Shown here: piece by piece, positions 11,218 through 47,268 of the stretch | How the letters are laid out: the number at the start of each line of letters is the position of its first letter | How positions within the stretch are numbered: position 1 is the stretch's first letter | Assembly: GCA_009783085.1 (NCBI GenBank) | Contig: WRHU01000004.1 | Coordinates: forward strand, 76,380-140,379 | Direction of reading: 5' to 3' | DNA from: Coriobacteriia bacterium | GTDB taxonomy: Bacteria > Actinomycetota > Coriobacteriia > Coriobacteriales > UBA8131 | Length of the DNA: 64,000 nucleotides | Made by a program: the position numbers and the translations under genes | Notes under the pieces: generated by a model | What the model was told of the DNA's origin: nothing | The model's input: only the letters and a program-made list of their open reading frames with translations | The model's database searches: none

Positions 11218-11931
11218 TCAAAGACCCAGTGCTTTTTTGAGTGCAGTAACACGCCTGCGCGAAACGGGTATCTCCTCGCTTTCGCCTTTGAGCGAAAGCA
11301 AAAGCGTGCCTCCACTCACGGGAGTTATCTCCTCAACACAGGCAAGATTAACTAAGTAGCGACGATGGACACGAAAGAACCCAAAGGACTCAAGTTTTGT
11401 TTCCAGCTGAGCAAGAGAAACCGTTGAAAGGTAGCGGTCTTGTTCGGTATAGAGATAGGAATAATCATCGCGTGCCATGATATAACAGATGGTGCCTACC
11501 GCAATAAGTCTACGCTTGCCGTTTTTCTCGACAGGTATGCGCTCATTGATGCCACTGGTAGCGTAAACAGACACAAAATGCTTGACACGTGCGAGTGCCT
11601 TGACCAGGCGCTCTGTTTCAACGGGCTTAAGAAGGTAATCTACTGCGCTTACATCAAAAGCTTCGGTGGCGTACTCGCTGTAAGCGGTAACAAACACAAC
11701 GGCAGGAGGGTACTTAAGGCGCTCAAGGGCCTCTGCAAGCTGCAAGCCATTTGCACCAGGCATCTGAATGTCCATAAACATGACATCAGCACCTTTATCC
11801 TTTAGGCACTCGATAGCTTCACGCACGTTTGCGGCCTCAGCGACAACTTCAACGCCTCCAGCTTCGTCCAGCAAAAAACGCAACTCTGAGCGAGCAGGAG
11901 CTTCGTCATCAACTATTATCGCTTTTATCAT
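11218..11931 (-). CDS. LytTR-family response regulator
   Basis: Receiver domain (VDDE, FMDIQMP, YLLKP) plus LytTR domain (FFRVHRRYLVN, IPVSRR). Confidence 0.94.
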   Translation of the reverse strand: MIKAIIVDDEAPARSELRFLLDEAGGVEVVAEAANVREAIECLKDKGADVMFMDIQMPGANGLQLAEALERLKYPPAVVFVTAYSEYATEAFDVSAVDYLLKPVETERLVKALARVKHFVSVYATSGINERIPVEKNGKRRLIAVGTICYIMARDDYSYLYTEQDRYLSTVSLAQLETKLESFGFFRVHRRYLVNLACVEEITPVSGGTLLLSLKGESEEIPVSRRRVTALKKALGL

Positions 11932-13213
11932 TCTCAACCGTCCTCAATTTATTAAACAAGCCAAGGGTCAAAATTACCGTCGTGCCTTCTCCCAGTTTAG
12001 ATTGTACCTCAAGCCCCGCACCTGCGCCAAATAAACTGCGGAGACGCTCGTCAACGTTGCGCAATGCGATACCTGCGTGCTCACGATTTGGGTCAAGCAT
12101 CTGCTGTTGCTCGGTGGCGCTTATGCCAACACCGTCATCTGCAACGGTGATTTTTACTATGCCATCAACGCTGGCAGCGCGCACAGAAATATGAAGCGGT
12201 CTTTCAGCGTGTAGGGCATGGGCTACCGCATTTTCTACGAGGGGCTGCAGCACAAAAGCCGGAACCATAATATGCCTGAACTCAGAGGGAATGTCCCAGT
12301 CAATCGAGATGCGCTCGGCACCAAAACGAGCAACTTCAAATCCAAAATAGCGCAACGTTTGGAGGTATTCTTGCTCAAGCGTAATAAGGTCAAGCGAGCC
12401 CTCAAGCGTGCGACGATAAAACACCGCAAACTCTCTGAGCAGCACACGCGCCTGTTTGGGGTCGGTGCGAGTAAGGGCTGCAATGGTATTGATGGTGTTA
12501 AAGAGAAAATGAGGGTTTATCTGCGCCTGCAAGGCCTTGAGGCGCATCTGCGTGGCGAGCTCCCGCTGGTATTCAAGGTCGGCGAGCTGCAACTGCATCT
12601 CGAGCAAAGCGCCCAAACCCTGTGCCATTGCCTTTTGTGTTTCGTCAATTTTTTTTGCCGAGCGATAGTAAAACTTAAGAACGCCAGCTGGCTCTTCATG
12701 CACGGTCAAGGGAACAACAATAGCCGCCTGCAAGCTTGAATAGGTTTTAGGAAACCCAATGTCTTCTTGCGAGGTGATTACCCGCATTTCTCCGTCTTTC
12801 AACGTAGCGAGCGTTGCCTTGGTCATAACCGGCGAACCAACCTTGTGAGATTCTTTTTCTGCTCCAGCAAAACCCATGATGAACTCTCGGCTGGTAATGG
12901 CAACGGCATTAGCGAGCGTAGCAGGCAACAAAAGCTTGCAAACCGCTTGTGCAGAATCCTCCGTAAGGCCTTGGCGCATAAAGGGCAGCGTGTTTGCCGC
13001 AAGGCGCAAGGTTCGTTCACTTTGCCGGGCACGCAGTCTGTCGGGGTCAATGAAGTAGCGAAACGAAAACACAAAAAGGAGAAATAAGGCGGCAAGGCAC
13101 AACACAAAAATAACCGGGTGCCCGTCGGTGAGCACCACAGCAAGCGTAACTATGATAATGAGGGCAATCGCACCCGAGAGCACGAGTTTAAGACCTGAGG
13201 GACGTTGCTTCAT
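11909..13213 (-). CDS. LytS-type membrane sensor histidine kinase
   Basis: Two N-terminal TM helices, a GAF-like region, LQAQINPHFLFNTINTI, LQPLVENAV and a G-box; overlaps the response regulator gene. Confidence 0.93.
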   Translation of the reverse strand: MKQRPSGLKLVLSGAIALIIIVTLAVVLTDGHPVIFVLCLAALFLLFVFSFRYFIDPDRLRARQSERTLRLAANTLPFMRQGLTEDSAQAVCKLLLPATLANAVAITSREFIMGFAGAEKESHKVGSPVMTKATLATLKDGEMRVITSQEDIGFPKTYSSLQAAIVVPLTVHEEPAGVLKFYYRSAKKIDETQKAMAQGLGALLEMQLQLADLEYQRELATQMRLKALQAQINPHFLFNTINTIAALTRTDPKQARVLLREFAVFYRRTLEGSLDLITLEQEYLQTLRYFGFEVARFGAERISIDWDIPSEFRHIMVPAFVLQPLVENAVAHALHAERPLHISVRAASVDGIVKITVADDGVGISATEQQQMLDPNREHAGIALRNVDERLRSLFGAGAGLEVQSKLGEGTTVILTLGLFNKLRTVENDKSDNS

Positions 13214-13306
13214 GTTCTTTTCTTGACCACCTTGCTTGACACGTTAATTGTCATTATGCAGCAGCTGCACCAGCGTACTAGGTGCTACCACCGCTGCGCC
13301 ACACGC

Positions 13307-13370
13307 CTAGCTACACTAGCTACACATCTAGCTACACGTCCAGTTACACTAGCTACACATCTAGCTACGC
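13307..13370. repeat. Intergenic tandem repeat, six units of CTAGCTACA(CAT)
   Basis: Units start at 13307, 13316, 13328, 13340, 13349 and 13361. Confidence 0.85.
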
Positions 13371-14183
13371 GCTTATGTTCTTTACCAGCAACAAAACAGC
13401 GCTCACACATAACAGGATACCAAAAGCAGCACGCAGGGGGCGTTCGGGGAGCTTTGCCGCAAGCCACGCTCCCAGCTGTGCGCCGGGTATGGTTCCCACA
13501 ATAAGCGCAAGACCATACAGCCACGCAATTTGTCCCAACATGCCGTGCGCTATGATACCCGGTATGGCAATAATGCTTATCGCCAAAAGCGACGTTCCTG
13601 CCGCTTCTTTTAGGGAAAAACCGAGTACCGCAACACAAAAGGGCACGATAATAAAACCGCCGCCGATGCCAACCAATCCTGCCGTAAGACCAGCAATCGC
13701 CCCGAGAACTATAAAAAGTGCAGAGCGTTTGCGAAGGTCTGATGCTTTTTGGGCTGCTTGCTCGGTGCCAGTGGTAGGAGTGAAGGACTTCTCCCGGGCT
13801 TTTAAAATCATCGTAATGGCACTGTAGAGAATAACCGCCACCGTAATGAGCACCAAAACAAGTTCTGGAACCGAGCCAGCAATGAGCGAACCAATCACCG
13901 AAAAACAGGCACCGGTAAGACCGATGATAATTCCCACTTTGAAATGAATAGTTTTTTGGCGCAGATGCCTCAAAGCCCCTGAAAGCGCAGTGGGCACAAT
14001 GGTAAAAAGTGACGTAGCCGTAGCAGCTATCATGGGTAAGCCAAACGCCAGATTATACAAAGGCACAATCAACGTACCGCCGCCGATGCCAAACATACCC
14101 GAAAGCACGCCAATAGCAAAACCACACAACACTATAAGCAGCACCATCTGCGGCTCAAAACTTATTGCGTCAACAAACTGCAT
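13365..14183 (-). CDS. TauE/SafE (sulfite exporter) family membrane protein
   Basis: Twofold internal repeat G..SG..GIGGG.L.VP and multiple TM helices. Confidence 0.9.
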   Translation of the reverse strand: MQFVDAISFEPQMVLLIVLCGFAIGVLSGMFGIGGGTLIVPLYNLAFGLPMIAATATSLFTIVPTALSGALRHLRQKTIHFKVGIIIGLTGACFSVIGSLIAGSVPELVLVLITVAVILYSAITMILKAREKSFTPTTGTEQAAQKASDLRKRSALFIVLGAIAGLTAGLVGIGGGFIIVPFCVAVLGFSLKEAAGTSLLAISIIAIPGIIAHGMLGQIAWLYGLALIVGTIPGAQLGAWLAAKLPERPLRAAFGILLCVSAVLLLVKNISA

Positions 14184-14208
14184 TGTTAGTAAAACCCTCT
14201 GAGCTCAT

Positions 14209-15453
14209 CTAGGCTCTCACTGAGGGGAACCCCTGTGACGAGCCCTGCGGCGCAGCCTGCAATGGGGCGCCCGTTAGGATTGAGCGCATAAGGGGGTCTG
14301 CTTCAAAAGCAGCAACAATATGCGGCCAACCACTTTGGAACTCGTAGTATTTCATGCAGAACGTTTCGGCATATTCTTTTGCCTCACGCTGCGCCACCAT
14401 TGCGGCATGGAAATAACCTTTACGATCTTTTGGTCGACCAATAATGCGCAAAACAGCCGTAATGAAAACACGCCCCGATACCGAATGCTCCAAAAAGGGA
14501 CCAGGATACGGGTCAAGCGTATGCGACTGAATGGGAATTAGGTCAATTTGCGATTTAGCGTATTCGAGCTTGCGGTGCTCATACACCCAGCGATAAATGT
14601 CTTGCCTAAAGCGCTGCGCCTCGGTACGATTTGGCGGCGGAAGGTGCGTTGCATGCCACTGATTGTCAAACCACACATCACCACCATACATGCGCACGTT
14701 AAGCAGATAGTCCAAGTCCTCACCGCGCGATATCCACGGGTCAAAAGAAACACGCCTAAACGCCTCACGATGGATAATGCCCAGGCCCCCATAAAAGCCA
14801 TTTGACCGAGAAAGCCGACTACCTCGCATCGCCTTAGTAATCCAGGCGTTAAACAACTCGCCCTGCTGCCAAAAACGGTCGTACCATTTGCGGGTATTTG
14901 ATGACTTCCAGCTCCCCTTGCTGTCAAGGAAAAATCCTGTTTTAACAAGAATGGGCACACCCTTTGGTGTGAGCTTTCCTAAACCGTAGAGCGCTTTTTC
15001 GATAAACTCGTCGTCTTCGATAATCTCATCATCATCAATAAATATGCACTCGGTGTAGCCACCGGCTGCCGCAACAATAAGGCCAAGATTACGCATGGCT
15101 CCGTAACCACTGAGCGCAATAGTTTCCTCGAGGTCATAAAATCCAAGAGCTTCGGCGCGCTGATAAAACTGCTGCAAGACCTCGTCGTCGATGACCGTTA
15201 TGTTAAGCGTGTCGGCAAAGGCACTCGCAATGCCCCGTATTTTATTTGATGCCGCTTGTTCATAGCGCCCCTCGGCAACCACGAGGAGGAAAATGGGCAA
15301 AGTAACGCCCCTCTCTCGCAGCGAAATAAGACAGCGACTGAGCTCACCTTGATGCGTAAGCGGCGTTACGTGGTCATAGGTTTCGATAACGTCGTCGCTG
15401 ATTGGCTTACGGCTCCCACCCACGTAAGTTGGTACGATAATAACAGGATTCAA
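14209..15453 (-). CDS. GT-A fold (GT2-like) glycosyltransferase
   Basis: IIVPTY start, IFIDDDE (DxD) and GEDLDY motifs. Confidence 0.65.
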   Translation of the reverse strand: MNPVIIVPTYVGGSRKPISDDVIETYDHVTPLTHQGELSRCLISLRERGVTLPIFLLVVAEGRYEQAASNKIRGIASAFADTLNITVIDDEVLQQFYQRAEALGFYDLEETIALSGYGAMRNLGLIVAAAGGYTECIFIDDDEIIEDDEFIEKALYGLGKLTPKGVPILVKTGFFLDSKGSWKSSNTRKWYDRFWQQGELFNAWITKAMRGSRLSRSNGFYGGLGIIHREAFRRVSFDPWISRGEDLDYLLNVRMYGGDVWFDNQWHATHLPPPNRTEAQRFRQDIYRWVYEHRKLEYAKSQIDLIPIQSHTLDPYPGPFLEHSVSGRVFITAVLRIIGRPKDRKGYFHAAMVAQREAKEYAETFCMKYYEFQSGWPHIVAAFEADPLMRSILTGAPLQAAPQGSSQGFPSVRA

Positions 15454-15489
15454 GATGGCTCCTTACTGGTGGTCGTGGTGGTTGCCAAA

Positions 15490-16875
15490 CTAAAAAGTAA
15501 GCGTTTCAAGACGTTCAAAAAGTATGCTTCGATCTTCAAGAAAGTTCCACGGGTCAAACAGTTCGTCAAGTTGCTGCGGGGTAAGAGATTTTGCGCGCTC
15601 GTCAGCAGCAATGCGTTCTTTATAGCTTGGCCCTGAGCGTGCCTGCTGAATATCGTCCCAAACGGTCATAGCGTTGCTCTGAACAATGTCATACGCTTCC
15701 TCACGCGTAATGCCCGTATCAACAAGGGCCAAAAGCACCTTGCTCGAATAGATGAGCCCTCGGGTGCGGTCAAGATTTGCTTGGCAATTCTCAGGGTAAA
15801 CCACAAGTCCTTCTAAAATCCACTGCGCTTTGGCAAGAATATAATCAAGGGCAATAAAGCTATCGGCAAGAGCGATGCGCTCAGCGCTGCTGTGCGAAAT
15901 GTCACGCTCATGCCACAGGGCCACGCTGTCAAACGCCACCTGTGCGTTCGCTTTGATGTTGCGCGCCATACCGCAGATGCGCTCGGCGGTAATGGGATTG
16001 CGTTTATGGGGCATGGCTGATGAACCTTTTTGGCCTTTGGTAAAGGGCTCTTCGGCTTCAAGCGTATCGCTTTTTTGGAGCGCTCGTATTTCTGTCGCAA
16101 TATGTTCAAGCGTTGCTGCTGTAATGGCAAGTGCTGAGGCAACGTGGGCGTGATTGTCACGCGCAATAACCTGTGTAGAAAGCGGGTCGGCCGTAAGTCC
16201 CAGCTTCTCGCATATATACTCCTCCACAAAGGGATCTATGCTTGAATAGCTTCCTACTGCACCAGAAATAGCACCGCGCGCAGCAGACAAATCTCGTGCC
16301 TGTTTTAGGCGCTCCTCCGCACGCTTAAGTGCCCAAGCCCACGCGCCAAACTTCATACCAAAGACCATGGGCTCAGCATGAATACCGTGGGTACGTCCTA
16401 CGCATAAGGTGTCTTTGAACTCAAAGGCTCGCTTTTTGGCAGTATCACCGAGTTTGCGCACGCCTTCCAAAATGAGGTCAAGTGCCTGCGTGATTTGACA
16501 ACATAATGCCGTATCACCCAAATCTGATGAGGTCATTCCATAGTGGACCCAGCGGGAAGGCTTAGGCTCTCCCTCTGCGATACCAGCGTCTAAGTATTCT
16601 GCAACATTGGTTAAAAAAGCGATAACATCATGGTTGAGCGTTGCTTCAAGTTCGTCGATGCGCTCAACGTCAAAATTGGCATTCTCGCGAATGAAGCGTG
16701 CTTCCTCTAAAGTGATGCCCGATGCCTTGGAGTTTGACTTATTGGCTTTGGCAGTCTGTGCCCCCAGCTCTGCCTGTGCCTCGCACGCAAGCGTTTCTAT
16801 CTCAAGCCACACCCGATATTTATTCTCAAGGCTAAATATCGCACCCATCTGCGGACGGGTATATCGGTCAATCAT
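15490..16875 (-). CDS. purB: Adenylosuccinate lyase
   Basis: MIDRY start, HYGMTSSD, GRTHGIHAEP and the GSSAMPHKRNP signature. Confidence 0.97.
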   Translation of the reverse strand: MIDRYTRPQMGAIFSLENKYRVWLEIETLACEAQAELGAQTAKANKSNSKASGITLEEARFIRENANFDVERIDELEATLNHDVIAFLTNVAEYLDAGIAEGEPKPSRWVHYGMTSSDLGDTALCCQITQALDLILEGVRKLGDTAKKRAFEFKDTLCVGRTHGIHAEPMVFGMKFGAWAWALKRAEERLKQARDLSAARGAISGAVGSYSSIDPFVEEYICEKLGLTADPLSTQVIARDNHAHVASALAITAATLEHIATEIRALQKSDTLEAEEPFTKGQKGSSAMPHKRNPITAERICGMARNIKANAQVAFDSVALWHERDISHSSAERIALADSFIALDYILAKAQWILEGLVVYPENCQANLDRTRGLIYSSKVLLALVDTGITREEAYDIVQSNAMTVWDDIQQARSGPSYKERIAADERAKSLTPQQLDELFDPWNFLEDRSILFERLETLTF

Positions 16876-37522: not shown

Positions 37523-37702
37523 CCCTTAGCCGCTACAAAACTGCGAGATTTTTGGCGATATATCGCGCCGAACCTTTGGGGAACCTTTTTATGGTGTGTT
37601 GCGCCGAGCTCTGGTCAAATCACGCCGAGCCTCGGTCAAATCGCGCCGATCCGCGCGACTGCCACGCATCTGACCACGCGCCGAGCCCTAGCCAATTTGC
37701 AC

Positions 37703-39646
37703 CTAGCCCCGGTTAAGGATTAAGTCCTGATACAGCGCAGTGGTTCTCAAGGACGGCAATATGCCCAGCTCCTCATGGAGAAACTCCTTGCACGCAAAAT
37801 AGGTTTCTATGGCAGAGGTACGCTGTCCCGCACTTGACTGCGCATCCATCAAGGCCCGATACACGTCCTCACGCGCGTGATCATAATCATAAGCGCGACG
37901 GGTGAACCACAAAGAGGACTGCACATCTCCCCTGCCGCTTGTAAGGTCGGCGGCAGTAAGAAGAGCATCAACAAGCAGGTTGTGTTGCCGCTTGCGATAC
38001 TGCAACAAAGCTCCATCGAGCCGAACCCCTACCAACAAATCATCGCGGTACAAACTCTCCATCTGAAACACGGCCTCAAGGCGTTGCTCACAACTGAGCT
38101 CACTACGGATTACCTTGCGCGCCTGCTCCTCAAACTGGTCAACATCGCTGGCAACCAACTCGCTGTCAAAATAGTAGTGCGAACCATTGCGGAAAAAGTA
38201 CCGCTCCTCGGCATCAGGAGAGGGGGCAAGCGTGCGGGTAAGTCGAGAGGCCGTAACATGAAAATTGTTGACTGCCCGCTCCCCTTCAAACTGCGGCCAA
38301 AATTGCTGAATGACCGTGTCGCGCGTTACACATTTTCTTGGGCTGAGAAGTATGAGAGCCAAAAGGCTCTGAACTCGCTTGCCGCGCAGGTAACGATGCT
38401 CAACGCGCGTATTGCCTCGATATATCTCAAGCTCTCCGAAAAGGCGAACATAAAGAGGTTCTTGCTCGGCACGTATTTTTGCTCTGCGGAGCGTTTTGGC
38501 GTTGGGCATTTTTACCCGTGACGGTTTGACTTCTAGTTCATAGGCGTTCGGCTCTTTTGCGCTTGGATCGAGCACTTTTGCGCCTGGGGTGAGCACTTTT
38601 GCGTCCAGCGCATGTGTGCCTGGTATTTTTTCAACCGCTTGCGCAGCTGATGTTTTCTCGTTTGTGTGTGCTTCATTTATCTGCCCTCCGCTTGCCTGCG
38701 CTTGGTTTGCAACCAAAAGTTCAACACAAGACAGGGTTTCATGCGAGCGAGCGTGCTTACCTTTCTTGAGAAGCTCCATTGAAAGGCGGGTTAGGGTTTC
38801 TATAATACGTTCGGCGCGCTTCTCGCAAGGCGCATCGCCATAGTATTCCGAAAAAACTTCTTGGATTGACGGCAATAAGTGCGCAAGCGGCATTCCCTTA
38901 AGGACAAGCTTGGTGGGCTGCTCATTATCTAGTTCAAAAAGTGGATTGAGCGTAGCAACCATCTGAGCCACATCGTCATGCACCGAAAACCCGAGCGAGC
39001 AGGCCTCTTTAGTTTCAAGCTCTTGCAGTATTGCCGCCAGCGTTGCAAAAAGACGAAGCTCGAGCGGCAAATCGTCGCACAGAAAATGCAGCGTGCAATC
39101 GAGTTGTTGCTCAGGCGTGCTGTGCATCTTGTTCAAAAGGTTAGCGCCTGCTATAAGGCAGCGGTCGGACTGGAGGTTGTCGTAGCAATCGCACTGCGGC
39201 GTCGTTATCACCAAAACGCGCCAACCTTGCTCAACCAGTGTATCAAGGTCATCTGAGAGGCGCTGCGCCTGCCACGGCTCAAGGTAAGTTAAGTCGTCTA
39301 TGATGAGCATCTGCTCGCTCACATTAGGAACGGCGTTTTTAGTGAGAAACCCGAGGAGGCTTCCTGTTTCAACCCCTTGCACAAACACCTCTGTGCTGCC
39401 ATCGAGCCAGTGAACGTTTTCATCTTGGCGGTACTTTTGAATATAGCGATACGCCAAAGAGGTGCGTCCTGAACAACGTGGCGCAACGATAAAGCTCGGC
39501 ACATCTGCCGCAAGATGAATACTTTTGGCAAGGCCATCGAAGTAGCGCTCAGCTTCCTCCTGAGCAATGCTATTGGCTATTTTATTTGTGTTCGAGCTTG
39601 CTAGCATATTTGTTTCTAGAAGAATGCCTTTGAGTGTGTCGTGCAT
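37703..39646 (-). CDS. BTAD-domain (SARP-like) transcriptional regulator with a degenerate N-terminal NTPase-like region
   Basis: C-terminal LYVRLFGELEI (wHTH start), SDVDQFE, LYRDDLL, REDVYRALM and LGILPS (BTAD); N-terminal APRCSGRTS and LIIDD. Confidence 0.82.
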   Translation of the reverse strand: MHDTLKGILLETNMLASSNTNKIANSIAQEEAERYFDGLAKSIHLAADVPSFIVAPRCSGRTSLAYRYIQKYRQDENVHWLDGSTEVFVQGVETGSLLGFLTKNAVPNVSEQMLIIDDLTYLEPWQAQRLSDDLDTLVEQGWRVLVITTPQCDCYDNLQSDRCLIAGANLLNKMHSTPEQQLDCTLHFLCDDLPLELRLFATLAAILQELETKEACSLGFSVHDDVAQMVATLNPLFELDNEQPTKLVLKGMPLAHLLPSIQEVFSEYYGDAPCEKRAERIIETLTRLSMELLKKGKHARSHETLSCVELLVANQAQASGGQINEAHTNEKTSAAQAVEKIPGTHALDAKVLTPGAKVLDPSAKEPNAYELEVKPSRVKMPNAKTLRRAKIRAEQEPLYVRLFGELEIYRGNTRVEHRYLRGKRVQSLLALILLSPRKCVTRDTVIQQFWPQFEGERAVNNFHVTASRLTRTLAPSPDAEERYFFRNGSHYYFDSELVASDVDQFEEQARKVIRSELSCEQRLEAVFQMESLYRDDLLVGVRLDGALLQYRKRQHNLLVDALLTAADLTSGRGDVQSSLWFTRRAYDYDHAREDVYRALMDAQSSAGQRTSAIETYFACKEFLHEELGILPSLRTTALYQDLILNRG

Positions 39647-39674
39647 GAGAGCCTCCTGTTTTAGCAGTTGATGG

Positions 39675-42600
39675 TTAGTTCTGGTGTTTCTTGTTGTGTT
39701 TCTGAGTCTTTTGGGGAGCGCGGCGCATTCTTGCTGTTGCTCCTGCTGTTCTTGTTGCTCTTGCTGCTTTTATTGCTCCTGCCGGTCTTGTTGTTCTTGC
39801 CGCGTGCAATGGGCGCGCTACACCTGATACCCCAGACGAGCTTGAAGCCGCCCTCACCCTCAATAAGCTCTTTCTTAATATCACTCCAAATACTACGCAC
39901 AATCCCAGCAGAAAGCCTACGGCACCAAACAGAAACCAAACGCCTTTTGCGTCGCCCGTTTGCGGATAGCCCATTGCAATAACACCCTCGTTCCCAGACG
40001 GTATCGAGAAAGAAAACTCCGTAAAAAAGGAAGTTATGGTTGTGGTAGCAACATGGTCATTTACTTTGTCGGTTAGTACGGCGTTGCGCGCGATATTTGC
40101 CTGTGCCGATGCCGTGATTTGCTGAGGTGGAAGGATTTCTTGCGGGCACACAACAAGATAATACGCCGGATACGGATTTGCTGCCGAAGCACCTGAAGCT
40201 GGCTGCGTAAGATTGAAGTTTTGGGCAAGGGTGCTCTCCGACCAATCCAACGAAGACTTATTGAGCTGCTGTCTTGTAATGAGTCCTTTTGCAGTGCTAA
40301 AACCAACCTCAACCGAACCATACTCGTAGCGCACGCCGGTAATGTACTCATCATCTGCCAAGCCAAGGTCTGCAACATACAAATGCGTTGTTTCTGTTGT
40401 AGAAAGGTTTTCTGCCCAGAGCTGCCACCCTGCAGAAGAATAGAGCTGTACATTTTCAGGATTGTTGGGATTATACGGATTATTACTCATAGCATTAGCG
40501 TTTGAATAATTAGTGGTTGGGTCTGTTTGGTTGGTGCGATACCACAGATTAAAGCACCCATCGGTATCACCGGTAGCAACGGGTGTCCACAGCTGCGTCA
40601 AACGAACCTGCCCCGCCTGAGCATTTTCCATGGGGTCTACTACGGTGAACTCATCAGCGCGTACATTGGAGGTTGAGCGGAACCCTACCTTGTAGGCATA
40701 CTCCTCCGTGCCAATGTTATTTATTTGCAGATAATCCTCATCCATGGTTCTAAAAGCTGCCGAGGTAATGTTGATAGTATCTTTATAAACCTCGCACGAG
40801 AGTTGTATAAGTTCGTCGTAAAATACCTGAATTTCATCGGTTGAGGTGGGAACAATTTCGAAATACTGAACGGGACTTTGCCCGCTTTCTTGTGCTGAAG
40901 CATACTGAGGGTTTGGCAGAGTTTCTTCAAGGCGATATGAGCCAGAGGTGAGCTGCGGATAAGCAACCTTACCGTTGTTGTCTGTTGTAAGTGTAGCAAT
41001 GAACTCCCAGCTGCCGTGTTCGTCGGTTATGTGCGCCGCGTCTGGATTTTTAGGTTCGTTACCTTTTTTGAGCTTTTTGTGAAGGGTGAACTCCGTGTTT
41101 GCAACGGGTTTTTCAGTGCCCTTTTCAAGCTTATTTATTTCTAGGTCGCGCCGCTTGTTTTTGCGGGTAATACTTTTGGTTGCGTCGTCGGCAGTAAGCG
41201 TAACTATCTCACTTGCGTCTTTGGGTAAAATCCACCCGTCAACTGGCTCAAGCTCAACAATCAAATAGGTACCTGGTTCAAGCGGAGAGAACAAGACTGT
41301 GCCGGTTTCGTCGGTTCTCTTTTGTGTGCGCGGCTCGTCTTTGAACACGCCAGAGCCTTCTACCTCTTCTTCATACAGGGCAAAGAGTGCGCCTTCAAGG
41401 GGCTCATTGCTGTCTGCGTCCACCTTTTTAAGTTCGATGGTTCGAGGCGTTTCGGGAACAATGAGAGCGTTTAAGCGCTCAATGCTGTCTTGTTTGATAC
41501 CATCGGTATAAAGCTCTCTGTTTACTCTGTTGTTGGCTCCCGGAGTAATTTTGAGCAGTGAGATGGGGTTAGGGTCTGGGAGCAGGTAAGCAGCTGGAGC
41601 CTTTGTTTCTTGGATAATGACGGTGCCGAGGGGGATTATAGGATAACCTGCACTAATAAGATAAAGAGGATCAGAGCTTGCCAATAAATAATCGTTAGAG
41701 AGCCATGCAATGCCATTATCCTTCGTTTCTAACACCCATGTTCTCGTCGGAGCACCCGAAGCTCGGGCTGCTTCTGGGGTGTCGTAGTAACCCGCATAGT
41801 ATTCCCACGTAAACTGAGCACCCGCAAGGCTTGCGCCCGTTGGATCGTCAATGCCGTAGGCCTCACCCGTGCGAGGATCGAGCTTTTGAATTTTCACAGG
41901 GGCAGGATCACCCAAGGGCGCGTCATGCACCCGAAAATCAAAGCTAATAACGGTGCCTGGGCGAGCAGGAGTAAGCGAAAAGCGCACGGGGTCAGGGTTG
42001 AGGGCGTAGCCGGGAGGGGCTTGGGTTTCTTTAACATAATACGCTCCGAGAGCAAGTCCTTTCAACGTGTTAGAATTGCCGTTTTTGTCCGTGGTAAGCG
42101 TACCTACTTTAGCCCCACTTATCTCATAGAAAACATCAAAGGTTGCGCCTTCAAGTGAATAGCAAGGGTTGTTTTCGGTAATGCCTGAGTTTGCGGATAG
42201 TTTTTGCAGCCATACTTGTCCAGTTTGAGGTGCGTCGTTAAAAGTTATAGTTCTGTTTTGATTGGCGTGGTTTAAGACAAAGGTTTTTACCTCACCAGAG
42301 AGGTTGTAGCCAGCAGGGGCTTCGAGTTCAATCATAAAGTAGTTGCCATAAAGCAGTTGCTTTGACCATTCTGAGAAACCGTCGGAACCTTTAACCACAA
42401 GCATGCCTTCAAAGGTAGCATACGAGCTATACTGGCTGTTGCTTATGTAGCTATTAACCGCTGACTGGCGTGTCGCCTCATTGCTTAGAAGGTTCCTCAC
42501 GTTTGTGGCGTGTGCTGTTCTTTGAGTACTTGTAAGGCTTGGTTTGAACTTAAATACACCAAAAGTCGCACCGGCAAAGGAGTACATACCTCCACTGGTC

Positions 42601-43469
42601 GCAGGGGTTTTTGAGGCATCGGTCGAGCCTTTTCTCACTTGGGCTTTGGTCTTTATCTTAAAGCGCATTTCTCCTTCAGCAGCACCTTGGAACCGTGGGC
42701 CAAAGTCGATCTTTACTGCGTACACATAAACATCGGTTCGATGGTCAAAACCACGATACGTTAGTGTTAGATCACCTGTTTGGTGTAGGGCTGGATTGTT
42801 TCTGCCGGGTGTTTGGCACCAAAGTTCTGTAACGGTACGACTAACCGCATATTCATTTGCGGTGGTTGGGTCGGTGATAGTAATATATGCCGTAAACTTG
42901 TTGTTTGTCCCCGACATGACAGTTTGGTTGTCAGGGGATTTAGTTCCTGGCTTCCACGTTTCAAGCTTTGTAATTTCTCCATAGCCATACATGGTGTTTT
43001 TCAGAGGAGGGTTTGGTGGCGTAATGCTTGTGTCAAGATTTTTGTCGGCCGTCCAGACCAAGAGGTCAAAGGAGGAGTCCGAATAATAATCTCCAGCATC
43101 ATCTTTGTTAATGGTAGGGCCATCAGCGGCAAGAGGTACGATGGGCTCATCTGCCAAAGGAACAGTCGGTTCGTCTTCATGAGGCTCATTGAGAGAGTCA
43201 GCGTTTTCTTTGGCAGGCTCATTGCCTCTTTTCGTTTTTGATGCCGATTGATCGTCCTTAGCATTCTCTGTTTTGTCAGGCACAAAAGCTGAAGTCGCTT
43301 TGTCATCGGAGCGCTCCCCTACTCGTCCAGCCTCTGTAGAATCCGCCTCACTTCTGGTAGTTGAAATCTCTGACAGCGGTGCCGCCCCAAAGAGCATTGG
43401 CAAAACAAGGAGGAGTGATATGAGTATCGTCAAGACGCTCTTTAGTGGCTTTTTAGATAGTGCTTTCAT
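39675..43469 (-). CDS. Large SpaA/Cna-B repeat isopeptide adhesin with an LPXTG-like sorting signal
   Basis: Signal peptide; about five K..…L.GA.F…G.Y…E..AP.GY units; YPQTG followed by a TM helix and basic tail; SD GAAAGG before ATG 43469. Confidence 0.85.
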   Translation of the reverse strand: MKALSKKPLKSVLTILISLLLVLPMLFGAAPLSEISTTRSEADSTEAGRVGERSDDKATSAFVPDKTENAKDDQSASKTKRGNEPAKENADSLNEPHEDEPTVPLADEPIVPLAADGPTINKDDAGDYYSDSSFDLLVWTADKNLDTSITPPNPPLKNTMYGYGEITKLETWKPGTKSPDNQTVMSGTNNKFTAYITITDPTTANEYAVSRTVTELWCQTPGRNNPALHQTGDLTLTYRGFDHRTDVYVYAVKIDFGPRFQGAAEGEMRFKIKTKAQVRKGSTDASKTPATSGGMYSFAGATFGVFKFKPSLTSTQRTAHATNVRNLLSNEATRQSAVNSYISNSQYSSYATFEGMLVVKGSDGFSEWSKQLLYGNYFMIELEAPAGYNLSGEVKTFVLNHANQNRTITFNDAPQTGQVWLQKLSANSGITENNPCYSLEGATFDVFYEISGAKVGTLTTDKNGNSNTLKGLALGAYYVKETQAPPGYALNPDPVRFSLTPARPGTVISFDFRVHDAPLGDPAPVKIQKLDPRTGEAYGIDDPTGASLAGAQFTWEYYAGYYDTPEAARASGAPTRTWVLETKDNGIAWLSNDYLLASSDPLYLISAGYPIIPLGTVIIQETKAPAAYLLPDPNPISLLKITPGANNRVNRELYTDGIKQDSIERLNALIVPETPRTIELKKVDADSNEPLEGALFALYEEEVEGSGVFKDEPRTQKRTDETGTVLFSPLEPGTYLIVELEPVDGWILPKDASEIVTLTADDATKSITRKNKRRDLEINKLEKGTEKPVANTEFTLHKKLKKGNEPKNPDAAHITDEHGSWEFIATLTTDNNGKVAYPQLTSGSYRLEETLPNPQYASAQESGQSPVQYFEIVPTSTDEIQVFYDELIQLSCEVYKDTINITSAAFRTMDEDYLQINNIGTEEYAYKVGFRSTSNVRADEFTVVDPMENAQAGQVRLTQLWTPVATGDTDGCFNLWYRTNQTDPTTNYSNANAMSNNPYNPNNPENVQLYSSAGWQLWAENLSTTETTHLYVADLGLADDEYITGVRYEYGSVEVGFSTAKGLITRQQLNKSSLDWSESTLAQNFNLTQPASGASAANPYPAYYLVVCPQEILPPQQITASAQANIARNAVLTDKVNDHVATTTITSFFTEFSFSIPSGNEGVIAMGYPQTGDAKGVWFLFGAVGFLLGLCVVFGVILRKSLLRVRAASSSSGVSGVARPLHAARTTRPAGAIKAARATRTAGATARMRRAPQKTQKHNKKHQN

Positions 43470-43558
43470 GGGTTGTCCTTTCTTTTTGGAGCTTTCTTGT
43501 TGTATGTAAAAACGTGCAAAGGACTTTTCAATAGCACTGATAATTTTACTAAGTTTTA

Positions 43559-44614
43559 TCACTTCTTTACCAACTTCCAGTAGCCGGATACGACCCAGAC
43601 TTCTCCGTAGACAGCAGGGTGATGGATAGTGACAGCTACTAGGGTGTTGTAGTAGCCGTAGAGCTCGCTGACGGCATAATGCGCTTCCATGTGTTCTTGG
43701 AATTCGTTGTAAGGAACAGAGAGAAGAAAAACTTGACCACAGTCGCAAACCACCGCTGGAACATGAACTTCCTCATCCCACGCAGGCGTTACCACCACCC
43801 GCTCATAGTGTGAGGTGTCAGTCCATACATAGGTGTAGTTAGGGTTCGAAGGTGCCGGTGGTCGCTGTGAGCGGTTAGCGTAGATTTTTCCGCTCTTGGG
43901 CTTACAAAACGCGCCTTTGCCACCCTTGCACACGGCGCGCACTTTGAAGTAGTACGTTTTGTTTGGCTTAAGCTTTTTGTTGGTAAAACTTTTCTTGACA
44001 CCACTTTGGACAACGCCAGCCTTGGTATATTTGCCAGTTTTAGACGTTGCACGGTACACCTCATAGCCGGTTGCACCAGCAACAGGCTTCCAGGATATTT
44101 TAATAACATCATGGCTTGTTGCAGCAGTCTTAATCTGAGGTGCCTTTGGCACGGGCTTTCCTGCAACTACCTTGCTAAACGCACCTTTTTTGGCACCAGA
44201 AACAGTGCGAACTTTATAATAATAGGTCTTGCCCGTTTTGAGTTTCTTATTAGTAAAGCTTGTTTTGGTACCGCCTTGGATAGTACCAACCTTAGTATAT
44301 TTGCCCTTTTTGGCCGTTGCTCGGTAGACCTCGTAGCCGGTAGCGTCCGCACTCTTTTTCCATGTTATTTTCACAGAAGTATGACCCACAGATGTCACTT
44401 TGACACCCTTAACCTTCTTGGAAGCTTTTGCCGTAAGGGTTTGCAGGGTAAACGCAAGGTCATTTGCCATACCACCATCTTGAGGGGCACGCGCATTGCC
44501 TTCTTGCCTAGCAGGGATATCCGAAACAGCATATGCATTGCCAGCTGGTACAGCCAACGCTAACGCCAAAACAAAAGACAACAAGGCAACAAAATGTTTA
44601 GGGGAATTTTTCAT
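43559..44614 (-). CDS. Secreted protein with two fibronectin type III domains and a Cys/His C-terminal module
   Basis: Signal peptide; duplicated KITWKK...ATGYEVYRAT...LK..KTYYYKVR; C-terminal VCDCG...HMEAH. Confidence 0.82.
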   Translation of the reverse strand: MKNSPKHFVALLSFVLALALAVPAGNAYAVSDIPARQEGNARAPQDGGMANDLAFTLQTLTAKASKKVKGVKVTSVGHTSVKITWKKSADATGYEVYRATAKKGKYTKVGTIQGGTKTSFTNKKLKTGKTYYYKVRTVSGAKKGAFSKVVAGKPVPKAPQIKTAATSHDVIKISWKPVAGATGYEVYRATSKTGKYTKAGVVQSGVKKSFTNKKLKPNKTYYFKVRAVCKGGKGAFCKPKSGKIYANRSQRPPAPSNPNYTYVWTDTSHYERVVVTPAWDEEVHVPAVVCDCGQVFLLSVPYNEFQEHMEAHYAVSELYGYYNTLVAVTIHHPAVYGEVWVVSGYWKLVKK

Positions 44615-45846
44615 GCAAAGCTCCCTTCGGGCTCAACCTCAATAATTTCATCGAGTGGACTTGCAGCCGCCATCTCAAAAAGACGTTTTTGGAGATCTAT
44701 CTCACACGCAAGTGGAAGCTGAAACAAAAGGCAACCACGCCATACCACGTTAAGAAACTCGCCCTTATCCACAAGGGATTGTTTTACACGAACAACATGT
44801 GCCACGGTAGGAGACACCAATGAGCAACCCTCGGGAACAACAAAAGTTGCACGTCCCTCAACAAGACGCACGTGCTTTCTCGCCAGCGTTTTGGCAGATC
44901 CATTCTCGTCAAGAGCTATGAGCTTTACGTTCCAGCGACGGATAAAGAATGCAAAAGCAAGCACTCCCAACAGCAAAACACCTACAGTCGTTGCCATTGC
45001 GCCGTATGGCACTGAAGTGCCTGGGATAGTTTCGAACAGGAGTGGTGACATGGGTAGCGCAAAGGGAGCAGAAACAACCTGAGCCTGCGGCACAAGCTCG
45101 GTGTCAATCAGCGTAAACGTACCACGATATAAAGCAGTTGCGGTAATATAGTCAACAATCAGTTCTCGCTCGCTGCCACGATACGTTACCTCCGCCGTAT
45201 AGCCAACTGGACGTCCTGCAGCATCAGTGCTTTTTGAAATCCATCGTATTGCTGCCATTTCGAGGTCTGCCGTAATGCTGGCCCCCGGACCCTCATCACT
45301 TGAAATAAGATACGCACGTGAGGTGGGAATATGGATAATGTCTGCAGCAGGAAGATTGCTATACCAGGCAACGCGCTCAATTTGACGCTCCACAGTTCTA
45401 TAGGCTGGCTCAAAGGTCAAAGATTCGAAGTCCAAATAGCCCTCGAACGTATCGTCGGCATAAAACACACGTGCCTCAAAAGCCTGTCTTATAGCTTCGT
45501 ATCCACCCTCCAGCAGCTCGGGAGCAACAATGCGTGTAATCGTTTTGGCACGCACCTCCTCAACCGTGCGAACTACTTCTTGTTCGTTTTGCTCGTGGGG
45601 GCTTTCGAACAGAGGGCTTCGAAGCTGCTCGTTTTGAGGCGTCCTATCATTATCTTGCTCCGCATACGCCAATGGAGAACAAAGAACAAAAAGGCTCAGC
45701 AGCACTGCCACAGCAACAAGAAAATATGAGGTTCTTGACAAAATAGTAAATAAATTTGCTTGATTGCTATCATAGTGATATAGTTGCTTATGTGACCTTG
45801 CAAACGAACGCATGACTTCCTCTTTCGTGTGGGGCAGTTGTGGCAA
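44611..45846 (-). CDS. Hypothetical exported protein with a TM anchor
   Basis: Hydrophobic segments near the N-terminus and at about aa 285-305; ATGA-coupled to the FN3 gene; start uncertain. Confidence 0.7.
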   Translation of the reverse strand: MPQLPHTKEEVMRSFARSHKQLYHYDSNQANLFTILSRTSYFLVAVAVLLSLFVLCSPLAYAEQDNDRTPQNEQLRSPLFESPHEQNEQEVVRTVEEVRAKTITRIVAPELLEGGYEAIRQAFEARVFYADDTFEGYLDFESLTFEPAYRTVERQIERVAWYSNLPAADIIHIPTSRAYLISSDEGPGASITADLEMAAIRWISKSTDAAGRPVGYTAEVTYRGSERELIVDYITATALYRGTFTLIDTELVPQAQVVSAPFALPMSPLLFETIPGTSVPYGAMATTVGVLLLGVLAFAFFIRRWNVKLIALDENGSAKTLARKHVRLVEGRATFVVPEGCSLVSPTVAHVVRVKQSLVDKGEFLNVVWRGCLLFQLPLACEIDLQKRLFEMAAASPLDEIIEVEPEGSFA

Positions 45847-45998
45847 AGGTTAATTGCTTGACTGCTTGACTTTGTTAGGGTATGCTAGCATACACACATT
45901 TTTTCGGGTTGTCAAGCTGATTTGAAAAGTTTTTTCGAAAACTAGTAAAAACTACCAGAAATGTCGTAAAAATAAACGATGCGAGAAAAGGAGTAATT

Positions 45999-46238
45999 AT
46001 GGAAACTACAACGAAGACAGCTCCAAAGCGGGGGGCAAAGGCACTGCAGAAGGCACTGCAAAATGAAAAGGGTGTTGATCGCCCTACCGTTTATAAGGGG
46101 TTTTATATCTACGCAGATCAGTACGTTAAGCTTCTTGAGCTTTCTGCCTACAACAAAATCAACGGCGTTGAGCCCAGCAACTCTTCGGAGATAATCCGTG
46201 TTGCGCTTGACGAGTTTATCGCAAAGCACGCCTCCTAG
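45999..46238 (+). CDS. Small ribbon-helix-helix-like (CopG/ParG-type) DNA-binding protein
   Basis: SD AGGAG; beta-strand YKGFYI followed by helices ending SEIIRVALDEFI. Confidence 0.6.
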   Translation: METTTKTAPKRGAKALQKALQNEKGVDRPTVYKGFYIYADQYVKLLELSAYNKINGVEPSNSSEIIRVALDEFIAKHAS

Positions 46239-46248
46239 TTTTAACAAC

Positions 46249-46288
46249 GCTCCTGCGGGGGCGGTCAGCTGACCGCCCCCGCAGGAGC
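46249..46288. repeat. Perfect 40-bp GC-rich palindrome
   Basis: GCTCCTGCGGGGGCGGTCAG|CTGACCGCCCCCGCAGGAGC, with no spacer and no U-tract on the plus strand. Confidence 0.95.
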
Positions 46289-46317
46289 CAACAAAAGAGA
46301 AATGAACCAAAGGTACC

Positions 46318-47268
46318 ATGATTAACAAAGGTCGCTTTAACAATTTACATCTCTATGAAGTCACCGAGCAGGACTTGCTCATTCCTACTGAGAAGTCTGC
46401 GCACTACCGCCAAGGCAACGTTCTCATTTTTGCCGATAAGAAAAACATTGACTTTGGCTTTGAGCTTGCCAAAGCCGATGACCTCACCGCTGCACAAGAA
46501 TACCTTGCCAATAGCGAAACGCTTATGTATGAGCGTATTCAGGAATTGGAAGGGCAAATACAGCAGCTCAATGTGGGCATTCAGCAGCGTGAGGGTCTTT
46601 TGCAAGACCTTACGGCAGATTTGCGTCACGAGCGCGATATATCCGGCGTACTTAAACAAGAACTTGAAGAAGCGTACGAAAAACTCGAGGTTGAGCTCGC
46701 AAGCCGCGATGAACTCGTTGGCGATTTGCAACAGGCAAGCGCTGGAACGCACACCGTTGAGGCCGCCTTGCAAAAGACTCTTGATGAAAAAGAAAAACTT
46801 ACCCAAGAGCTGGCAACGCACGTGGTTGATTTGGTTGACCTCGACCTACAGAACAAGGAGCTTAAGCGACTTTTGGAGCAAGCCACAAAAAGCTCCGAAA
46901 AGGCACCCGCAGCAATAAGCGTGGCTGATGACACATCAAAAAATCCTTCTACCCTCTCTGCCGCTCCTACCTCCGTAGCTCCCCTCTCTACCCCTGCTAA
47001 CGCTGCAAGCCTCGCAAACGCTGCAGACAACAGCTCTGTTCTCACCATGTCAACGGGCAAGCAGGTTCATGTTTACCATGAGTTTTCGGCTCCGCCCAAA
47101 CGGGGAACCAAAGCCCTTGTATCGGGAGCCATTCGAAATATCGTGCGCATTGGGACAGTCGTCTTTGTCGCTGCCGTCGTGGCTTTGGCGCTCAGCGTTG
47201 TCGCAACTGCCTATCTCAACAAAGTAAGCTTTGGAGAAGCCTTTGATATTCTGTTTGCAATGATTTAG
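46318..47268 (+). CDS. Hypothetical coiled-coil protein with a C-terminal membrane anchor
   Basis: Long heptad-rich E/L/Q region, an Ala/Ser/Pro linker and a C-terminal hydrophobic helix. Confidence 0.7.
   Translation: MINKGRFNNLHLYEVTEQDLLIPTEKSAHYRQGNVLIFADKKNIDFGFELAKADDLTAAQEYLANSETLMYERIQELEGQIQQLNVGIQQREGLLQDLTADLRHERDISGVLKQELEEAYEKLEVELASRDELVGDLQQASAGTHTVEAALQKTLDEKEKLTQELATHVVDLVDLDLQNKELKRLLEQATKSSEKAPAAISVADDTSKNPSTLSAAPTSVAPLSTPANAASLANAADNSSVLTMSTGKQVHVYHEFSAPPKRGTKALVSGAIRNIVRIGTVVFVAAVVALALSVVATAYLNKVSFGEAFDILFAMI

Follow-up and report, generated by a model that had tools for sequence, protein, structure and literature searches.

The window analysed here, a 64-kb stretch of a Coriobacteriia genome (1.58 Mb in 19 contigs, ~50% GC), carries a locus of four co-directional minus-strand genes, which we name TMH, X, ADH and REG. 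The locus was recognised as a predicted sortase-anchored adhesin operon of a known kind, within which the membrane protein TMH and its adhesin fusions, a knuckle domain in X, a candidate operator and a reduced form of a class-wide regulator (REG) are undescribed. The firmest new result is the link between TMH and the adhesin ADH. For the locus as a whole, we consider it probable that it is a surface-protein operon, chromosomal and passed on vertically within an uncultured Coriobacteriales family of the termite gut, with a promoter overlapped by a palindrome and with TMH, X and ADH sharing the transcriptional control of the REG gene. The host family (f1) is known only from metagenome-assembled genomes (MAGs) and belongs to the same order as Collinsella-like genera; relatives of the host genome originate from termite-gut metagenomes. 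No account of the locus was found in the literature on BTAD together with LPXTG or on termite Coriobacteriia. A first-pass annotation, made from the letters alone, had described four packed minus-strand genes with an ATGA overlap and a 29-bp gap, encoding among others a ~1260-aa adhesin with YPQTG and a 647-aa regulator, and the open reading frames (ORFs) confirmed this arrangement:

TMH, 44611..45813, minus strand: 400 aa from the ATG at 45813 (AGAGGA upstream); no Pfam or NCBIfam match
X, 43559..44614, minus strand: 351 aa, secreted; Pfam fn3 twice, 77 bits
ADH, 39675..43469, minus strand: 1264-aa adhesin starting MKALSKK; a longer frame from a TTG is unlikely
REG, 37703..39646, minus strand: 647 aa; Pfam BTAD (PF03704) only

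The membrane protein TMH, the X protein and the ADH adhesin

The TMH frame extends to a TTG at 45846, the ATG at 45813 being the likelier start. The predicted protein consists of a signal peptide or anchor, an all-beta ectodomain of ~165 aa, a Pro-rich linker, a transmembrane (TM) helix (residues 269-291) and a cytoplasmic beta-sandwich of ~100 aa, and an alignment showed this order of parts to be common to the homologues. An AlphaFold2 (AF2) model with a pLDDT of 76 overall, and >90 in the ectodomain, displayed very long beta strands in the ectodomain and a cytoplasmic beta-sandwich that was also confident. Searched with a TMH profile, 1.84 billion representative proteins yielded 652 clusters at E<=1e-3, 151 of them at E<=1e-30.

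The TMH and ADH genes were adjacent in >15 genomes, and the modules containing them were ordered TMH-X-ADH, TMH-ADH, ADH-TMH or ADH-X-TMH. Moreover, at least 13 of the best 150 profile matches were long single-ORF fusions of ADH and TMH, TMH being matched in their C-terminal part (P0055, P0056, P0149, P0180, P0183, P0190, P0199, P0219, P0227, P0233, P0234, P0237, P0246). The N-terminal half of these fusions comprises an ADH-type C-domain, an xPxTGD motif, a hydrophobic helix and a basic loop; the C-terminal half continues with a second hydrophobic segment (the TMH signal anchor), the TMH ectodomain, the TM helix and sometimes the cytoplasmic domain, which is missing from the Family XIII fusions P0055 and P0056. 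The predicted membrane topology was self-consistent across the fusions, and sortase cleavage would split the fused precursor. Taken together, the fusions and the varied orders in which the two genes lie side by side strongly support a joint action of TMH and the adhesin close to or at the sorting signal, suggesting that TMH is a membrane partner of the sorted adhesin, in the form of a bitopic membrane protein that would work beside the ADH sorting signal.

The X protein ends in a Cys/His knuckle domain of ~105 aa (43562-43879). Its knuckle residues (W, CxxCG or CxCG, H, GYW) were kept in the gene intervening between TMH and ADH at six other loci, and conservation of X was confined to the C-terminal ~100 aa. 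The preceding spacer consists of two FN3 domains here and is Gly/Ser-rich in six other loci. X may be an optional surface protein that bears its Cys/His knuckle on a spacer, and TMH, together with X where present, is proposed to be a surface or membrane partner of the wall-proximal end of ADH.

ADH matched SpaA (PF17802) over four stretches (173.8 bits) and SdrD_B in Pfam, and a comparison with the PDB returned collagen adhesins, with 7k1u at E=6.6e-29. The protein is made up of a signal peptide, an unknown head (residues ~200-370), a SpaA/CnaB-type stalk (370-880), a conserved Ig-like C-domain (880-1167; 39969-40832) and the sorting signal YPQTG (1168-1172; 39954-39968), which takes the form [LFTI]PxTG in homologues. 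YPQTGD is followed by a 23-residue hydrophobic stretch, then by RK and a basic tail. The cytoplasmic tail (39678-39890) is ~70 aa long and rich in Arg, Ala and Thr, usual tails being 5-10 residues, and long tails were also present in several ADH homologues (sorting motif at -53 to -83 relative to the C-terminus).

Homologues of the C-domain were found in MAGs of Coriobacteriales, Family XIII and Oscillospiraceae, where it is combined with thioester (TQXA), SpaA, FctA and pilin-D1 (GramPos_pilinD1) domains. An AF2 model of the C-domain (pLDDT 78) was matched by Foldseek, with low TM-scores, to Ig-like domains of integrin alpha, BcpA, SdrD and SspB. The first-pass annotation had likened this domain to adhesins of integrative and conjugative elements (ICEs) or of Tad-type elements. 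The homologues in MAGs, the stalk-type Ig-like fold matches and a single weak plasmid match did not bear out this likeness, and as modelled the domain is a stalk-type module, specific neither to ICE nor to Tad elements.

The genome's sole sortase lies on contig 2 (84817-85320; L001), away from the window contig, and its best model was class B TIGR03064 at 135 bits, under the equivalog cut-off of 153.75. Approximately five proteins of the genome end in PxTG(D), a helix and basic residues and are candidate substrates, with the motifs YPQTGD, APKTGD, TPKTGD and VPETGD. The Asp after PxTG is constant while the first residue varies, indicating that the first motif position is free. Neither a YPKN pilin motif nor any YPK occurs in ADH. 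Given the lone class B-like sortase, the PxTG(D) ending and the lack of YPKN, ADH is most likely a monomeric wall-anchored fibril, which would be secreted and then linked to the wall by the class B-like sortase.

Alternatively, ADH could be a pilin polymerised by the class B-like sortase into a sortase-assembled pilus, as in the FCT pili of S. pyogenes. The class of the only sortase would suit such assembly, some homologues have FctA or GramPos_pilinD1 domains, and ADH carries an E-box-like YYVKETQAPPGY. However, besides the missing YPKN motif, no sortase gene was found in or near the locus, nor were tip or base pilin genes, and in its length (1264 aa) and many stalk domains ADH conforms to the usual pattern of monomeric fibrillar adhesins. 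A pilus locus was rejected for want of a local sortase and a pilin motif, and we regard pilus assembly as very improbable. There being no class C sortase and no pilin motif, the locus is not one of the described pilus loci either, in line with the undescribed system that the first-pass annotation had suggested.

Promoter, candidate operator and probable co-transcription

The region upstream of TMH contains the following features:

Promoter TTGACA-17 nt-TATGCT, 45887..45915, minus strand: sigma-70-type, directed toward TMH, 10/12 in a consensus scan
Palindrome TATGCTAGCATA, 45881..45892, no strand: perfect, 12 bp, overlapping the -10 region; candidate operator
RHH-like gene, 45999..46238, plus strand: 79 aa, divergent from the operon, with a good ribosome-binding site; ribbon-helix-helix (RHH)-like candidate binder of the palindrome
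CC316, 46318..47268, plus strand: coiled coil with a C-terminal TM helix; placed with the RHH-like gene as putatively co-transcribed

Downstream of this region the four genes of the operon are closely packed. TMH and X overlap by ATGA (44611-44614), X is separated from ADH by 87 nt, and the ADH stop lies 29 nt from the REG start, with AGGAGG positioned 6 nt ahead of the REG ATG. No hairpin was found between ADH and REG, and no terminator between the operon genes. The tight spacing, the ATGA overlap and the terminator-free gaps suggest that TMH, X, ADH and REG are most likely read in this order as a single transcript, such that the palindrome-bearing promoter would drive all four genes together. 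In four related loci (L005, L070, L085, L098) the ADH and REG reading frames overlap.

The -10 box of the promoter is half of the palindrome TATGCTAGCATA, of which the genome holds one exact copy against 0.09 expected. With at most one mismatch, the palindrome was found in the RHH|REG or RHH|TMH intergenic region of >17 related loci, across genera, and the TTGACA beside it was kept in 15 of 17 related loci. Nine loci had 14 nt between palindrome and TTGACA and five had 17-18 nt, and this variability favours a protein-binding site over a simple -10 element. In the sister species the palindrome occurs three times (L007 6729, L007 8863, L068 2393), once ahead of REG, once in the gap separating REG from the RHH-like gene and once ahead of an unlinked TMH, which hints at a small regulon. 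A regulon drawn from near-copies of TATGCTAGCATA elsewhere in the host genome was rejected, as the six one-mismatch copies had no common context.

The RHH-like gene is the best conserved of the locus (56-83% identity in the family, compared with 30-55% for REG and CC316), and it always adjoins the palindrome. Its product shows a strand-helix-helix pattern ending SSEIIRxALDxYL, a sequence pattern that suggests an RHH fold, and the divergently encoded protein probably acts as a repressor through the palindrome. Perfect 17-nt palindromes, AATACGATTATCGTATT and CACTAAGTCACTTAGTG, were also observed between RHH-like paralogues and unlinked TMH-ADH modules (L078 ~5850; L079 ~1450). CC316 stands beside the RHH-like gene in >20 related loci and gave weak SMC-like coiled-coil matches; between the two genes lies a GC-rich perfect hairpin, CTCCTGCGGGGGCGGTCAGCTGACCGCCCCCGCAGGAG (46246-46290).

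REG, its class-wide relatives and the surface-protein module

REG is composed of a pseudo-P-loop STAND-like N-domain, a helical region, a low-complexity linker and a C-terminal putative winged helix-turn-helix (wHTH) with BTAD. BTAD was matched at residues 501-642 (53.5 bits against a cut-off of 22.1). For the winged helix, Trans_reg_C was not reported in REG and was sub-threshold in the homologue P0006 (23.1 against 26.2 bits); residues 28-278 of the AfsR chain 8hvr aligned to REG 384-638 (E=0.0066). This Streptomyces antibiotic regulatory protein (SARP) module occupies residues ~400-645 of 647 and was likewise C-terminal in all 20 class-wide orthologues inspected. With BTAD at the C-terminus, the domain order is the reverse of that of AfsR, as first noticed.

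The N-terminus had been called a degenerate NTPase, and this too was correct: in place of the APxG[FY]GK[ST] of long orthologues, REG has a Walker A-like APRCSGRT (39461-39484), in which Arg replaces the P-loop Lys and the first Gly is lost, so that GxxxxGK[ST] does not match, and its Walker B hhhhDD is intact (MLIIDD, residues 113-118). The form APRxSGR[TS] was present in 9 of the 10 f1 copies that keep the N-domain, indicating a conserved variant and not random decay.

REG is the lone BTAD gene in its genome, and a word-based search of 5.8 billion proteins recovered only seven full-length relatives. A six-frame search, by contrast, matched residues ~398-643 in 367 of 401 Coriobacteriia genomes, and the matching segment there forms the C-terminal end of open frames that measure 860-1150 aa. 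These long forms gave weak AAA_16, nSTAND_NTPase5 and TPR_12 matches, and those of closer families also aligned to REG residues 49-180. REG is 200-500 aa shorter than the long orthologues and had no Pfam match to sensor repeats (TPR/SUPR), and all f1 copies are short (284-713 aa). The C-terminal SARP module, the Walker motifs and the N-terminal homology of the long forms place REG in the MalT-ordered STAND group; judged by sequence, it is a shortened family version of a class-wide MalT-ordered NTPase/SARP regulator. A search of ~270 other Actinomycetota genomes with the long-form N-terminal module returned nothing at E<=1e-6, a weak test because the module evolves fast and only same-family matches turned up. 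No studied member of the class-wide STAND/SARP group was found in the literature.

In most of the 20 loci inspected, the class-wide gene is followed by secA and prfB. In other orders (L038-L057), an HD-GYP-type (HD_5) gene, an unknown ~400-aa gene and DUF5317 precede the regulator and secA-prfB come after it, a block that is kept over many families. Ten f1 genomes have a core layout without an adhesin, in which CC316 and a 70-90-aa RHH-like gene point away from the intergenic region with the palindrome, and REG, then secA, lie on its other side. At ~9 other f1 loci, about half of the genomes, TMH-(X)-ADH is located between the palindrome region and REG. The module-bearing loci are the window, L069, L070, L071, L072 and L077/L085, and also L088, L090, L098 and L005, where the contig ends inside ADH. 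All four genes occur in the same order in L069, L070, L071 and a 37.7-kb JGI contig with P0001/P0028/P0104, and subsets (TMH-ADH-REG, ADH-REG) occur in six further related genomes; the four genes thus do co-occur elsewhere.

At least six f1 genomes have REG on one contig and the TMH/ADH module on another, and several of the unlinked modules are accompanied by a divergent RHH-like paralogue. The sister species (L007) has REG at the same chromosomal position, in inverted orientation and with no module beside it, and its TMH-X genes are located elsewhere (L068; P0106 is from the same MAG). In the window and in L069, a raiA RNA and an ABC operon stand in for secA downstream, and secA is on another contig. 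Since REG occurs with and without the module, and the module occurs away from REG, REG belongs to the core and the three surface-protein genes form a mobile unit. REG is a core regulator, not a dedicated adhesin regulator as first suggested: its orthologues, upstream of secA, span the class, and the adhesin is missing beside it or carried on other contigs in the f1 genomes described above.

As the module lies between the promoter and REG, it would share the control under which the REG gene is transcribed. We propose that REG is an activator that lacks sensor repeats and the P-loop Lys, whose gene normally follows the same promoter and precedes secA, and that it would be expressed with the module because the module lies between REG and REG's own promoter. 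It is alternatively conceivable that REG is functionally unlinked to the adhesin, the module having landed or stayed in a permissive spot behind a strong promoter and REG acting on other targets only. REG is class-wide and secA-linked irrespective of adhesins, and the sister species has REG without the module. Furthermore, SARP modules bind direct repeats, not palindromes, and the operon promoter showed no conserved array of such repeats. However, the palindrome-module-REG placement recurs in ~9 genera and in two flanking contexts (secA, or raiA-ABC), and the overlapping ADH/REG frames suggest selection for co-expression; we consider a lack of functional linkage unlikely.

TCGGCGYG direct repeats 3' of REG were rejected as a SARP site, the array being absent from L003, L069 and L007. 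This array (37564-37684, minus strand) contains five direct TCGGCG(C/T)(G/A) copies spaced by 35, 21, 21 and 36 nt, sits between the REG stop and the promoter of the raiA/ABC operon, and accounts for four of the window's six exact TCGGCGYG copies.

A further possibility, which we hold to be speculative and rather doubtful, is that TMH proteins make up a so far undescribed membrane module that serves a single sortase-anchored adhesin family, and that they sense sorting. If sortase cut a fused precursor at its internal PxTGD, the adhesin would become linked to the wall and TMH, still carrying the sorting peptide, would stay in the membrane; in f1, TMH beside the cleaved peptide would use its cytoplasmic beta-sandwich to report sorting to, and control, the sensor-less STAND/SARP regulator of the same operon, with REG autoregulating the operon. 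Consistent with such a circuit, TMH is fused right behind the sorting signal in the 13 or more fusions, f1 TMH proteins keep the ~100-aa cytoplasmic domain, f1 REG proteins have a conserved N-domain despite having lost sensor repeats and the P-loop Lys, and ADH and REG appear translationally coupled in several genera. There is also a precedent in Streptococcus gordonii, where a histidine kinase is reported to receive a signal from the C-peptide that remains once sortase has cut (Hall 2019, PMC6662179, as summarised in PMC11502775). However, the two Family XIII fusions have no cytoplasmic domain, REG lacks an adjacent TMH in the ten genomes with the core layout, and TMH modules occur away from REG.

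Returning to the favoured reading, a surface-protein operon sharing REG's control, several observations weigh against it. Conservation of the palindrome could merely reflect two overlapping -10 boxes. Searches with the RHH-like protein against Pfam, NCBIfam, PDB sequences and, with a 19-sequence profile, the PDB gave no match; no library confirms the RHH fold, and the role of operator-binding repressor is thus a putative one. A Foldseek comparison of the TMH fold with the PDB yielded nothing below E=0.016, with TM-scores <=0.13. X was found in 7 of ~17 modules, and is missing from about half. Promoter-like sites inside ADH were detected in a consensus scan, so REG could also be transcribed separately. 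Finally, the position of the module between palindrome and REG may reflect either insertion into the RHH|REG locus or repeated loss from it.

Chromosomal setting and comparison with known systems

Among ~50 window ORFs examined with Pfam, the genes outside the locus were housekeeping genes only, including tRNA synthetases, PBP, an amino-acid ABC transporter, hpf, divIC, metA, an FHA protein and a D,D-carboxypeptidase. No sortase, integrase or type IV secretion system (T4SS) was found among these ORFs, in agreement with the first-pass annotation, nor were a coupling protein, VirB4 or element boundaries near the locus. A block of adenylosuccinate lyase, an unknown gene, TauE, a LytS-type kinase and a LytTR regulator (window 11218-16875; L085 1-4675) is directly beside CC316 in L085 and 30 kb off in the window, which indicates a local rearrangement in the window's lineage.

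The first-pass annotation had suggested that the locus is a domesticated adhesion module of an ICE or other conjugative element with its own dedicated regulator. The ADH C-domain homologues in Bacillota MAGs (Family XIII, Oscillospiraceae) are in keeping with this and point to transfer between phyla at some point, and GC dips slightly, to 0.468, at 42-46 kb. However, the locus at 0.47-0.51 GC matches the remainder of the window, no integrase, relaxase, T4SS or repeat boundary is present in the 64 kb, synteny with relatives is conserved, and the regulator is a core gene. An ICE or plasmid origin was rejected: a tblastn search of 72,556 plasmids returned one weak match to the ADH C-domain and zero to TMH, and the flanks are housekeeping and syntenic. 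We consider this origin very improbable. Of the undescribed regulated adhesion system originally put forward, the recurring module and its distinctness from described pili stand, and the ICE origin and the dedicated regulator do not.

Compared with known adhesins, ADH resembles those with CnaB/SpaA stalks (Cna, SdrD, thioester-domain 'TIE') in having a signal peptide, a tandem prealbumin-like or Ig-like stalk and a tripartite sorting signal. A TQXA thioester head is present in several module homologues, the ADH head being unknown. In contrast to these adhesins, the ADH group alone has an Ig-like C-domain next to the sorting signal, and ADH has a PxTGD motif for a class B-like sortase (predicted), a 70-aa tail and a co-inherited or fused TMH. 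Sortase-anchored adhesins are usually taken as self-contained substrates, whereas here one is linked to an uncharacterised bitopic protein. This link, seen in neighbourhoods in two phyla and in repeated fusion behind the sorting signal, suggests that wall anchoring has an accessory step, or a by-product, that has so far gone unrecognised.

Clostridioides difficile SrtB is a single class B-type sortase with (S/P)PXTG substrates. Like C. difficile, the host has one class B-type sortase, few surface proteins and a variable first motif position; it differs in that its motif is followed by an invariant Asp, and anchoring is here predicted from genes. The S. gordonii system is reported to couple a membrane-retained adhesin remnant to a membrane partner and to adhesin-gene regulation (PMC11502775). 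Its partner is a histidine kinase; the partner here is an unrelated bitopic protein that is sometimes fused to the adhesin precursor, and signalling is hypothetical.

The REG group shares an N-terminal NTPase, a helical region and a C-terminal DNA-binding output with MalT/LAL-type STAND regulators, and the long Coriobacteriia orthologues also share Walker A/B and TPR-like repeats. REG departs from them in its output, a SARP module (a putative wHTH and BTAD) instead of a LuxR helix-turn-helix, in its length of 647 aa, in having no detectable repeats, and in the Arg that replaces Lys. Like AfsR and the large Streptomyces SARPs, REG pairs BTAD and a putative wHTH with a STAND NTPase, but in reversed order, outside biosynthetic clusters, and as a single-copy core gene beside secA class-wide. 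This gives the 'inverted SARP' a context: nearly all Coriobacteriia carry such a regulator beside secA, of which REG is a reduced version.

Finally, the 79-aa gene is reminiscent of RHH repressors (CopG/Arc/MetJ), being small and divergent, with a strand-helix-helix pattern and a perfect palindrome over the promoter. Unlike those repressors, the 79-aa protein has no library match, and its binding to the palindrome is only proposed. Together, the conserved candidate operator and the small candidate repressor provide a concrete handle on the regulation of the locus.

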